11,055 bases of DNA from a virus. Each line of letters opens with the position of its first letter. The first letter of the stretch is position 1. The notes beneath the pieces are model-generated. The model did no database searches. It worked only from the letters and a program-made list of their open reading frames with translations, and was not told where the DNA came from. The stretch lies in UHGV virus genome UHGV-0100061. One strand, written 5' to 3'. Positions 3,486-11,055 of the stretch are shown here, piece by piece. A program made the position numbers and the translations under genes.

Positions 3486-3618
3486 TTTTTGGGACTCCTG
3501 GCTGATTAAGTATGTCGATAAGGCGTTTCCATCCGTCACGTAATTTACGGGTGATTCGTTCAAGTAAAGATTCGGAAGGGCAGCCAGCAACAGGCCACCC
3601 TGCAATGGCATATTGCAT
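3454..3618 (-). CDS. cIII: cIII, inhibitor of FtsH-mediated cII degradation
   Basis: Manual translation from ATG 3618..3616: [54 protein letters not shown] (54 aa), stop at 3456..3454. SD AAGGAG upstream. In a different frame from the 96-aa track ORF 3321..3611. Confidence 0.85.
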   Translation of the reverse strand: MQYAIAGWPVAGCPSESLLERITRKLRDGWKRLIDILNQPGVPKNGSNTYGYPD

Positions 3619-3640
3619 GGTGTGCTCCTTATTTATACAT

Positions 3641-7740: not shown

Positions 7741-8438
7741 AAAACATCGCCGCACAGATGGTTAACTTTGACCGTGAGCAGATGCGTAGGATCGCCAACA
7801 ACATGCTGGAACAGTACGACGAAAAGCCGCAGGTACAGCAGGTAGCGCAGATCATCAACGGTGTGTTCAGCCAGTTACTGGCAACTTTCCCGGCGAGTCT
7901 GGCTAACCGTGACCAGAACGAACTGAACGAAATCCGCCGCCAGTGGGTTCTGGCTTTCCGGGAAAACGGGATCACCACAATGGAACAGGTTAACGCAGGA
8001 ATGCGCGTAGCCCGTCGGCAGAATCGACCATTTCTGCCATCACCCGGGCAGTTTGTTGCATGGTGCCGGGAAGAAGCATCCGTTATCGCCGGACTGCCAA
8101 ACGTCAGCGAGCTGGTTGATATGGTTTACGAGTATTGCCGGAAGCGAGGCCTGTATCCGGATGCGGAGTCTTATCCGTGGAAATCAAACGCGCACTACTG
8201 GCTGGTTACCAACCTGTATCAGAACATGCGGGCCAATGCGCTTACTGATGCGGAATTACGCCGTAAGGCCGCAGATGAGCTTGTCCATATGACTGCGAGA
8301 ATTAACCGTGGTGAGGCGATCCCTGAACCAGTAAAACAACTTCCTGTCATGGGCGGTAGACCTCTAAATCGTGCACAGGCTCTGGCGAAGATCGCAGAAA
8401 TCAAAGCTAAGTTCGGACTGAAAGGAGCAAGTGTATGA
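7737..8438 (+). CDS. P: Lambda-type replication protein P (DnaB helicase loader)
   Basis: 233-aa ORF MKNIAAQMVNFDREQMRRIANNMLEQYDEKPQVQQVAQ..., recognised as lambda P. ATGA overlaps with O (start) and ren (stop). Confidence 0.95.
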   Translation: MKNIAAQMVNFDREQMRRIANNMLEQYDEKPQVQQVAQIINGVFSQLLATFPASLANRDQNELNEIRRQWVLAFRENGITTMEQVNAGMRVARRQNRPFLPSPGQFVAWCREEASVIAGLPNVSELVDMVYEYCRKRGLYPDAESYPWKSNAHYWLVTNLYQNMRANALTDAELRRKAADELVHMTARINRGEAIPEPVKQLPVMGGRPLNRAQALAKIAEIKAKFGLKGASV

Positions 8439-10278: not shown

Positions 10279-10421
10279 TCTGTGAAAACTGCAAATACCT
10301 TCCAACGAAACGCTCCAGAAATAAACGCAAGCCAATCCCAAAAGAATCTGACGTAAAAACCTTCAATTACACAGCTCACCTGTGGGATATCCGGTGGCTA
10401 AGACATCGTGCGAGGAAATGA
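10245..10421 (+). CDS. ninE: NinE (GTG start, overlapping the ninD 3' end by 34 nt)
   Basis: Manual translation, 58 aa: (M)[66 protein letters not shown] at 10234..10240. No in-frame ATG is available, so GTG at 10245 is used. Recognised as NinE family. Confidence 0.6.
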
Positions 10422-10423
10422 CA

Positions 10424-10765
10424 ATGGATTATTCACAGTTAAGTGATTTTGAAATTAACAGAATGGTAGGAGACATAATTTTTAAAGGCCTTTGGGCATG
10501 TAAACCGGAAACGTCAGGGAATAACACCAACAAATGGTATTACGGAAATGCTGATACAACTTTTGAGCCATTAAACCCTTTACCTGACTACTGCAATGAT
10601 CCGAGCGCTTCATGGCCGATTATTGAGAAATACAGGATTTCTATCTTAGACCAGTTAACTGAATGGTGTGTGGATGCAAAAGGCGTAAGCCCAATATTTG
10701 ATACCAGACCTCTCCGCGCCGCCATGATTGTCTTTCTCCTGATGCAGGAGGCCAATAATGCTTAG
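10424..10765 (+). CDS. Hypothetical nin-region protein (113 aa), function unknown
   Basis: [90 protein letters not shown]... Start 10424 has SD GAGGA 7 nt upstream; the alternative in-frame ATG at 10418 overlaps the ninE stop. The track start at 10382 is an extension. Confidence 0.7.
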
Positions 10766-10952
10766 CCCATCTCAATCCCTTCAATACCTGAAAGGAAGCA
10801 TAGAGCGGGCTTCAATGTGCACAGAGTGGATTCTATCTAGGTTTAGCGCATACAGAAGATTGCCGGTAAAGGGCATGCCAAGCAAGTCGATGCTGCATAT
10901 GCAAAAGAATGCGCGCTGGAAGGTATGGCGAGAACACAGGTTATCTGGCTGA
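10758..10952 (+). CDS. ninF: NinF-like protein, probably chimeric (N-terminal about 20 aa NinF-like, remainder unrelated)
   Basis: 64-aa [24 protein letters not shown]..., with strong SD AGGAGG at 10744..10749. N-terminus matches lambda NinF as recalled, but the Cys cluster of NinF is missing after about residue 21. Confidence 0.5.
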
Positions 10953-10975
10953 AAGAGGGGGTTATTAAGGCGTGA
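10847..10975 (+). pseudogene. ybcO-like 3' remnant (DUF1364-type nuclease C-terminus) lacking a start
   Basis: Frame-2 translation after two in-frame TAG codons (10838, 10844): [42 protein letters not shown]. Its stop overlaps the rusA GTG start as GTGA. No plausible start codon or SD for a full gene; the C-terminal about 30 aa resemble E. coli YbcO as recalled. Confidence 0.35.
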
Positions 10976-11055
10976 ATACCTACAGCATCACATTACCCTG
11001 GCCTCCGAGCAATAATCGCTATTACCGCCATAATCGCGGGCGCACGCACGTCAGC
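10972..11055 (+). CDS. rusA: RusA Holliday-junction resolvase, N-terminal 28 codons (runs off the window end)
   Basis: GTG start at 10972 followed by NTYSITLPWPPSNNRYYRHNRGRTHVS, recognised as the RusA N-terminus. SD GAGGGGG about 11 nt upstream. Confidence 0.8.
   Translation, partial: MNTYSITLPWPPSNNRYYRHNRGRTHVS

Follow-up and report, generated by a model that had tools for sequence, protein, structure and literature searches.

The DNA between ninX and rusA in this phage genome is very probably a mosaic joint without function, located in the ninR region of a lambdoid (pro)phage. With much the same confidence, it can be said to couple a left module of the lambda/P22 type (ninB...ninE-ninX-ninF) to a right module of the type found in DLP12 and phage 82 (ybcO-rusA-ylcG-Q-porin). 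The result is mainly one of housekeeping, since it bears on a NinF label that is wrong and on a PGAP call that is right.

The window, that is, the whole stretch of 11,055 nucleotides analysed (virus genome UHGV-0100061), is the early-right section of a lambdoid (pro)phage. It carries, in this order, the cIII thermoregulator RNA, the immunity region, O, P, ren, ninB, ninC, ninD, ninE, ninX, the scar and the first 28 codons of rusA. The nearest phage records are lambda imm21 hybrids, together with the 'Lambda_ev' and 'ev' phages of the infant gut.

Anatomy of the scar

The scar (10758-10975, about 220 bases) is made of a piece of ninF, a filler and the tail of ybcO, ahead of rusA. It is preceded by a P22-type ninX (10418-10765, plus strand; Pfam PF10765, E=1.9e-16), which is annotated as NinX in related records. 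The P22-style start of this gene, ATG 10418, overlaps the ninE stop as ATGA (10418-10421); the start given by PGAP in a homologue corresponds to 10424. The ninF-derived segment, codons 1-21 (10758-10820, plus strand), was delimited by alignment and by the blastn match to P22, which stops at 10820. Then come 65 bp of non-coding filler (10821-10885), matching neither ninF nor ybcO, and the 3' remnant of ybcO (10886-10975, plus strand), which comprises codons ~67-96 and the stop of this DUF1364, His-Me finger nuclease gene and is 98% identical in nucleotide sequence to DLP12.

The closest relative thus switches abruptly, being of P22 type up to 10820 and of DLP12/82 type from 10886, with a filler in between that is found in Stx1 phages only. 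An abrupt change of relative accompanied by gene fragments is what defines a mosaic joint in lambdoid phages, and both are present at 10758-10975. According to the initial annotation, a recombination scar joins the 5' end of ninF to a 3' remnant of ybcO that has lost its start, and leaves the start of rusA intact; all three elements are found in place. Alignment to ninF and to ybcO-rusA puts the breakpoints at 10820 on the P22 side and at 10886 on the DLP12 side. A search of the scar for Rfam families, terminators, promoters, repeats and stable RNA or DNA folds gave nothing beyond chance.

The ybcO remnant

The peptide read in the ybcO frame matches residues 67-96 of phage-82 YbcO (PDB 3G27) with E=2.6e-13. 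The DNA of 10886-11055 agrees with ybcO-rusA of the cryptic prophage DLP12 at 98% identity (E~1e-82) and with phage 82 at 92%. The YbcO-like C-terminus noted initially in a second frame is therefore real and far beyond chance. Because the first 11 nt of the DLP12-type homology are rich in mismatches, the joint between the filler and ybcO' must lie somewhere within 10886-10897.

The treble-clef zinc site and the catalytic His mark DUF1364 as a His-Me nuclease (PMC4999995, PMC5714182). What is left here amounts to the last 29-30 of 96 codons, to which Pfam PF07102 aligns at profile positions 62-92 of 92, scoring 18.2 bits against a cut-off of 29.9. The complete domain, of about 92 residues with zinc-binding Cys and the catalytic His on a beta-hairpin, is not present, and in DLP12 YbcO every Cys and His motif comes before residue 60. 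Judged from its sequence, the YbcO nuclease gene is destroyed: the C-terminal 30 residues remain, and the zinc-binding and catalytic part is gone.

The tail does not constitute an open reading frame with a start either. As had been noted initially, the ybcO frame contains two TAG codons (10838-10840 and 10844-10846, plus strand), has no usable start or Shine-Dalgarno sequence and ends in a GTGA overlap with rusA (10972-10975). Downstream of the TAG codons the single in-frame ATG, GTG or TTG is ATG 10925, giving 16 codons, and the GGAAGG one base upstream of this ATG is too close for a normal Shine-Dalgarno interaction.

The GTGA overlap and the rusA ribosome-binding site are shared with the ybcO(orf96)-rusA-ylcG-Q module of DLP12 and phage 82 (NC_000913, X92588), and the downstream order ylcG-quuD-porin of that module is also found in loci related to the window. 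Unlike DLP12 and phage 82, the window has lost most of ybcO and has ninX-ninF'-filler upstream, not ninE. Going by the papers that cite it (PMC1636454, PMC4118853), the ybcO(orf96)-rusA module of DLP12 and phage 82 was described by Mahdi et al. in 1996. In Enterobacter phage BHUENT3, to judge from its sequence, ybcO appears to have been truncated independently from its 5' side, up to about codon 50, and there too the tail is kept beside rusA.

Origin of the two joints

To the left of the filler the closest parallel is the ninX-ninF junction of P22 (NC_002371), which has the same ninX 3' end, Shine-Dalgarno sequence, overlapping ATG and ninF codons 1-21; identity over window 10611-10820 is 93%. 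In P22, ninF runs on into its Cys cluster and is followed by ninG, whereas homology with the window ends after codon 21.

The filler leads to a different group of phages. Stx1-converting phages, among them AU6Stx1 (NC_049921) and SH2026Stx1, match window 10792-10892 (ninF codons ~12-21 and the entire filler) with 87% identity and have the ninF'-filler joint in common with the window. The Stx1-type block is also present in 250 complete E. coli genomes. Unlike the window, the Stx1 phages have a dead ninF start of lambda type (GTG to GTA; codon 4 CAA to TAA) directly after ninE, and what comes after their block is not ybcO'-rusA but AT-rich DNA that carries a gene on the minus strand. Since the ninF'-filler joint exists there with no ybcO or rusA after it, it must be older than, and separable from, the filler-ybcO' joint, and two separable joints imply that at least two events made the scar. 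The initial annotation had pictured a single joining of ninF to ybcO. Its recombination scar stands, but the single joining does not, given the 65 bp of filler between the two parts.

Comparison of this block with its AU6Stx1 version reveals 13 differences, distributed 5/4/4 over the three codon phases, most of which alter the amino acid in the frame of the open reading frame that crosses the scar (see below). The lack of codon periodicity and the prevalence of amino-acid-changing differences indicate that the ninF'-filler block has drifted as non-coding DNA.

This leads to the following proposal. In an older illegitimate event, ninF would have been cut after codon 21 and fused to a piece of DNA now reduced to about 65-70 bp. 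In a second, likewise illegitimate event the filler would have been fused to ybcO at about codon 67, with deletion of the zinc-binding and catalytic part. Selection would have kept rusA and the last ~20 nt of ybcO, which include the rusA ribosome-binding site. The number and order of events are what we infer from the joints, the donor of the filler not having been found. A blastn search against phages returned only 27 scar-bearing records and 4 Stx1-phage records, E. coli genomes contain the filler in the window and Stx1 contexts only, and when a degenerate 37-mer was run against bacteria, with each species represented by one genome, a single E. coli contig was hit.

Two candidate sources of the filler were tried and rejected. 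A diverged ninF 3' half gives a weak MAFFT alignment, and its local scores equal those of dinucleotide shuffles (p~0.5) with both the window and the AU6Stx1 copies. A longer DUF1364 allele does not account for the filler either, as the YbcO proteins of Klebsiella and Enterobacter phages align from about residue 65 only and are devoid of the 'IAGKGHAKQ' insert.

An alternative, though unlikely, model assumes that the scar arose by internal deletions in one ancestor of the order ninX-ninF-(other genes)-ybcO-rusA, instead of by recombination between two phages, and that the filler is a remnant of the deleted interval. The region is demonstrably prone to deletions with 2-5 nt microhomology, and the filler matches nothing in either proposed parent, as this model would have it. 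However, ninF and ybcO have not been seen together in the nin region of any one phage. In the intact ybcO-rusA modules examined, ybcO comes directly after ninE (four cases) or after a small hypothetical gene (one case, mEp237), and in the Stx1 phages the ninF'-filler block occurs with no ybcO-rusA following.

The preferred origin by at least two illegitimate events has ample precedent. The mosaic 'novel joints' of lambdoid phages and the decay of defective prophages are the subject of the work of Hendrix, Juhala, Casjens and colleagues. Like the scar, such joints show abrupt switches of relationship in or between small nin genes, dispensable genes being lost and a recombination gene kept. The present joint is the same in kind, and it lies inside two genes and has left a three-part remnant. 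Shuffling of ninR genes has also been noted elsewhere (PMC4118853).

Selection across the scar

Polymorphism was scored in 66 ungapped copies (36 haplotypes) out of 83 IMG/VR matches. The first 28 codons of rusA show 13 synonymous and 3 replacement changes and are under purifying selection. In ninX there are 13 synonymous and 9 replacement changes together with 2 nonsense variants. The ninF' part of the chimeric open reading frame has 0 synonymous and 6 replacement changes, and in the ybcO' part neither frame is favoured. In all probability, protein-level constraint is absent from the scar.

No variable site occurs in 10821-10868 among the 36 haplotypes, against 7-19% variable sites in the flanks; 10869-10893 is fixed by the search pattern itself and is thus uninformative on variation. 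Several of the flank variants are simply P22-type residues, and the invariance of 10821-10868 is accordingly attributed to a lack of diverged alleles with which this stretch could recombine. Constraint on 10821-10868 may also contribute. One could then regard the filler (10821-10885) as a functional non-coding element, such as a protein-binding site or a nuclease target, which would explain both its invariance and the fact that seven independent deletions end exactly at TA 10867-10868 (see below). Short palindromes adjoin this TA, GGCATGCC at 10872-10879 and TGCATATGCA at 10894-10903. Such a function is nevertheless quite improbable, since the filler has diverged by ~11% from that of the Stx1 phages, similarly to the ninF' part, and has no Rfam match, repeat or stable structure. 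Furthermore, 0 of 36 Stx-type copies carry a deletion at the equivalent TA, and the variation of the flanks can be imported from diverged alleles of ninF, ybcO and rusA, for which the filler has no counterpart.

Translation of rusA

The 5' end of rusA, with a GTG start (10972-11055, plus strand), continues past the end of the window and is annotated as rusA in related records. The 28 codons present are 98% identical to those of DLP12, and near-identical loci hold a 120-aa gene of PF05866, the family of RusA Holliday-junction resolvases. Its Shine-Dalgarno sequence, GAGGGGG (10955-10961, plus strand), lies 10 nt upstream of the GTG and is annotated as the rus ribosome_binding_site in phage 82 (X92588). 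It begins 2 nt after the stop codon of the chimeric 64-aa open reading frame, and its core (10955-10960) is invariant among the 36 haplotypes.

The initial annotation held that rusA keeps its coupling context. The letters of the GTGA overlap between the ybcO stop and the rusA start (10972-10975) are indeed preserved, but this overlap cannot act because the closed ybcO frame cannot be translated into it. Any upstream translation that reaches rusA would be that of the chimeric 64-aa frame, which stops 19 nt before the GTG. The element that is functionally retained is, on the sequence, rusA's own ribosome-binding site within the last 20 nt of ybcO, and it is probably because the tail holds this site that it survives. 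Around the rusA start, the predicted RNA structure is weaker than in shuffled controls (z=+1.3), and there appears to be no need for upstream ribosomes to unmask the start.

It would follow that read-through from the early rightward operon supplies the rusA transcript, on which translation starts with the gene's own GAGGGGG-N10-GTG. The 64-aa frame, having inherited a good Shine-Dalgarno sequence and ATG, is probably translated into a junk peptide, itself functionless. As this frame ends so near the rusA GTG, ribosome traffic may incidentally continue across the scar. In K-12, rusA is silent unless an IS provides a promoter (PMC1636454, PMC4118853). Read-through transcription would take the place of such a promoter where the phage is inducible.

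The tail, the 64-aa frame or both might instead be kept for true translational coupling of rusA, beyond housing its ribosome-binding site. Kroger and Hobom reportedly observed in 1982 that the lambda ninR genes are interlinked, and stop/start overlaps chain the ninR genes here as well (ATGA at ninE-ninX, 10418-10421; ninX and the 64-aa frame; GTGA at rusA). Moreover, the 64-aa frame stops immediately before the rusA Shine-Dalgarno sequence, and three in-frame deletion fusions (at P codon 33, P codon 47 and cro codon 61) keep its frame and its stop, although they were found by a protein search that is able to detect in-frame fusions only. True coupling would nonetheless seem distinctly improbable: rusA has its own annotated ribosome-binding site with nothing obvious to unmask around the start, the GTGA overlap is unusable, and deletions joining non-coding or opposite-strand DNA to 10869 also persist. 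A tail retained for the ribosome-binding site that it contains is thus the preferred interpretation.

The chimeric 64-aa open reading frame

This frame (10758-10952, plus strand; ATG 10758, TGA 10950-10952) begins with ninF codons 1-21, runs through the filler and ends with ~22 codons in the ybcO tail, which it reads out of frame. Its ATG, which overlaps the end of ninX (stop at 10763-10765), is preceded at a distance of 6 nt by AGGAGG (10746-10751, plus strand). The same context exists in P22, and the AGGAGG is, by this likeness, inherited from the ninX-ninF junction. In its position after ninX/ninE, its overlapping start and its upstream Shine-Dalgarno sequence, the frame looks like a ninF gene, with the arrangement seen in P22.

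The resemblance does not extend to the protein. PHROG 672 (NinF family) matches residues 1-22 only, with E=0.003, while P22 NinF is matched over residues 1-57 (E=2.7e-37), so that full-length homology to the ~58-aa NinF protein is missing. The ninF-derived segment stops at the first Cys of the Cys cluster (codon 21), no later Cys of the cluster is left, and the Cys-rich core C-x2-C ... C-x3-CC is absent. Pfam PF05810, which models this cluster, finds no match in the 64-aa frame (P22 NinF, 2e-13, residues 20-44), and a broader Pfam and NCBIfam search is equally negative. Among 5.8 billion proteins there are no distant homologues, only near-identical E. coli copies and frameshifted, extended or fused variants. 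The initial annotation was right in restricting the similarity to the N-terminus, devoid of the Cys cluster. The segment is of P22 type, however, and not of lambda type as it had assumed; lambda NinF has only the core ESVERA in common with it. Neither of the two outcomes that would have spoken against a scar was obtained, as the frame is not a conserved full-length family member and the YbcO similarity is significant.

The frame is open in all 66 ungapped copies. This carries little weight since the copies are ~99% identical and the chance probability of an open 43-codon read-through is ~13%. NinF is, by its sequence, destroyed in the scar, and the 64-aa frame is most likely a by-product and not a NinF protein, even if some function as a small protein may exist. 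That it is a genuine functional NinF-family variant, as the RefSeq phage labels have it, is extremely improbable and largely refuted: its strong Shine-Dalgarno sequence, P22-like overlap with the ninX stop, openness in every ungapped copy and 'protein ninF' label (NC_049949 and NCBI protein records) stand against the failure of the Pfam NinF model, a PHROG match limited to 22 of 58 residues, a C-terminus made of out-of-frame ybcO, homologues that are all near-identical E. coli copies, several of them frameshifted, extended or fused, the excess of replacement changes in ninF' and an Stx1-phage copy without start codon and with a nonsense codon.

Distribution and annotation

With a 674-nt query and a coverage of >=80%, the scar is detected in 566 complete E. 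coli genomes. It occurs as well in 27 phage records, among them those of the isolated phages ev207, ev099, mEp332 and PhiR11_1, and is thus not an artefact. The window-type filler is present in 589 of 5,426 complete E. coli genomes (~11%). From its presence in isolated phages, the scar appears to be compatible with phage viability.

PGAP already annotates a 'DUF1364 domain-containing protein; incomplete; missing N-terminus' at exactly 10886-10975, and this pseudogene call is correct. By contrast with this right call, the name 'protein ninF' that RefSeq phage records and many NCBI proteins give to the 64-aa frame is a misnomer, the NinF domain being absent from its sequence. The literature on ybcO and rusA and that on ninF, ninX and mosaicism yielded no description of the present joint. 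The scar is an ordinary, widespread and already annotated pseudogene, of a sort usual for mosaic lambdoid phages. It shows by example that isolated, sequenced phages can lose ninF and ybcO and suggests that a joint inside genes is tolerated if the ribosome-binding site of the downstream gene survives.

Recurrent deletions ending in the filler

Junction sequences reveal that the TA dinucleotide at 10867-10868, within the filler, is a recurrent, nucleotide-precise deletion endpoint. This TA, just left of AAGGGCATGCC, is the exact right end of at least seven independent deletions in prophages. The fusion reading frames of defective prophages came from a protein search, after which the DNA was read; three of the seven events were found via such an in-frame protein match. 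The left partners are codon 33 of lambda P (L012), codon 47 of P (L016), codon 61 of a 434-type cro (L014), ea22 (L023, L025), a second point in ea22 (L111), a point downstream of exo (window 1478; L035) and the ral-sieB spacer (window 4256; L088). The right flanks are on different haplotypes. No such deletions were detected in 36 loci with the Stx-type copy.

No IS, repeat, structure or known site that would account for the precision of the endpoint was found. Several causes were considered by inspection and found no support. In the case of an IS-mediated adjacent deletion, no IS is left at the junctions; for a secondary site of lambda Int, there is but a weak core-like match 8-14 nt away. 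With a Type I-E CRISPR target, the AAG PAM and the protospacer would stay, hence no escape. Ter sites, Chi sites and cruciforms are absent, and the RusA ^CC or RuvC consensus fits only some junctions.

A tentative and, on balance, doubtful explanation is that TA 10867-10868 marks a site-specific DNA break or a replication-arrest point in lambdoid prophages. Possible agents are a phage His-Me nuclease, for instance YbcO attacking alleles that lack ybcO; RusA, through cleavage 5' of CC at stalled forks; and a protein that binds tightly. Were one particular nuclease or roadblock responsible, this would provide a mechanistic handle on the reduction of prophages to domesticated remnants that keep rusA-Q. 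The hot spot hints at a non-random step in prophage decay and is the one part of the scar that might merit follow-up.

A further deletion, L019, has its left end at the same TA and extends into ylcG, and the point reached in ylcG, TTA/CCGAATAC, is common to three deletions (L019, L021 and L248). Unbiased pattern scans detected further endpoints, single or loosely clustered, at ~10679-10712 and at 10844. Microhomology of 1-5 nt, in most cases (G/T)TA, is present at every deletion junction, and the lost side often starts with C.

Recurrent deletion endpoints

The dinucleotide TA at window 10867-10868, which lies within the filler of the scar immediately before AAGGGCATGCC, is a nucleotide-precise hot spot of prophage deletions. 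Seven independent left partners are joined exactly at this point, with junctions found in loci L012, L014, L016, L023, L025, L035, L088 and L111 of related genomes. These partners are codons 33 and 47 of the replication gene P, codon 61 of a 434-type cro, two points in ea22, a position downstream of exo (window 1478) and one in the ral-sieB interval (window 4256). The junctions display 1-4 nt of microhomology, mostly (G/T)TA. In one case (L019), the same TA serves as the left endpoint of a deletion.

A second recurrent endpoint lies inside ylcG, the gene that follows rusA in related loci (TTA|CCGAATACTG, positions 2539-2540 of locus L001). This single position is joined to three different left partners in L019, L021 and L248, namely window 10868, window ~10943 and unrelated sequence. 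Among the 156 loci collected after the IMG/VR scan, one is non-canonical.

Further deletion right-ends form a loose cluster at the 3' end of ninX (window ~10679-10712), falling at 10687, ~10690, 10695, 10698, 10700 and 10712, and one additional right-end is located at 10844. The loci that display these ends are L030, L095, L034, L063, L110, L125 and L124. The site at P codon 33 (window 7835-7838) has been used twice as a left partner, once with 10695 and once with 10867.

A repeat expansion and probable insertions within the scar

In different genomes, an identical foreign sequence (TGTCACGAACGGTGCAATAGTG...) breaks the scar at two positions close to each other: at about 3613 of locus L020, equivalent to window 10870, and near window 10900 in the gene for NCBI protein P0008. 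The L020 contig ends ~110 nt past the entry point. The foreign sequence is probably an insertion sequence. In the IMG/VR locus L076, the 5' part of the ninF remnant (equivalent to window ~10775-10795) carries two extra tandem copies of the 9-bp unit CCCTTCAAT. This expansion adds 18 nt while keeping the frame, and looks like the product of replication slippage.

Neighbouring genes and public annotation

A 5'-truncated ybcO is also found in the unannotated record of Enterobacter phage BHUENT3 (L011, ~450-696), and likewise in ENT1 (H88). Homology in BHUENT3 begins at about codon 50 (ATIACSSCHDE...), after a stop and a stretch of unrelated DNA, and the ybcO tail and rusA are kept. Apparently, this truncation is an independent event.

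Upstream of the scar, a mosaic boundary is evident at window ~10254, at the start of ninE (10245), where the sequence switches in 64 of the 83 IMG/VR loci and in most of the metagenome loci. Upstream of ninE, the switching loci carry a Dam-type N6-adenine methyltransferase, whereas the window has ninC-ninD. Some haplotypes of ninX bear nonsense changes at window 10536 and 10544 (W to stop, G to stop), and its polymorphisms comprise 13 synonymous versus 9 replacement changes. In a fraction of the population, ninX may be undergoing decay.

In public records the chimeric 64-residue ORF goes by the name 'protein NinF', as do variants of it that are truncated or fused (NC_049949 gp59; NC_049953; NCBI proteins P0001, P0003, P0006 and P0008-P0010), and none of these contains a NinF domain. 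It appears that this misannotation propagates through similarity of the first 21 residues.

Finally, the minus-strand match to the lambda cIII thermoregulator element at window 3573-3631 (Rfam RF01804, 88.5 bits) is the regulatory RNA expected for the cIII gene.
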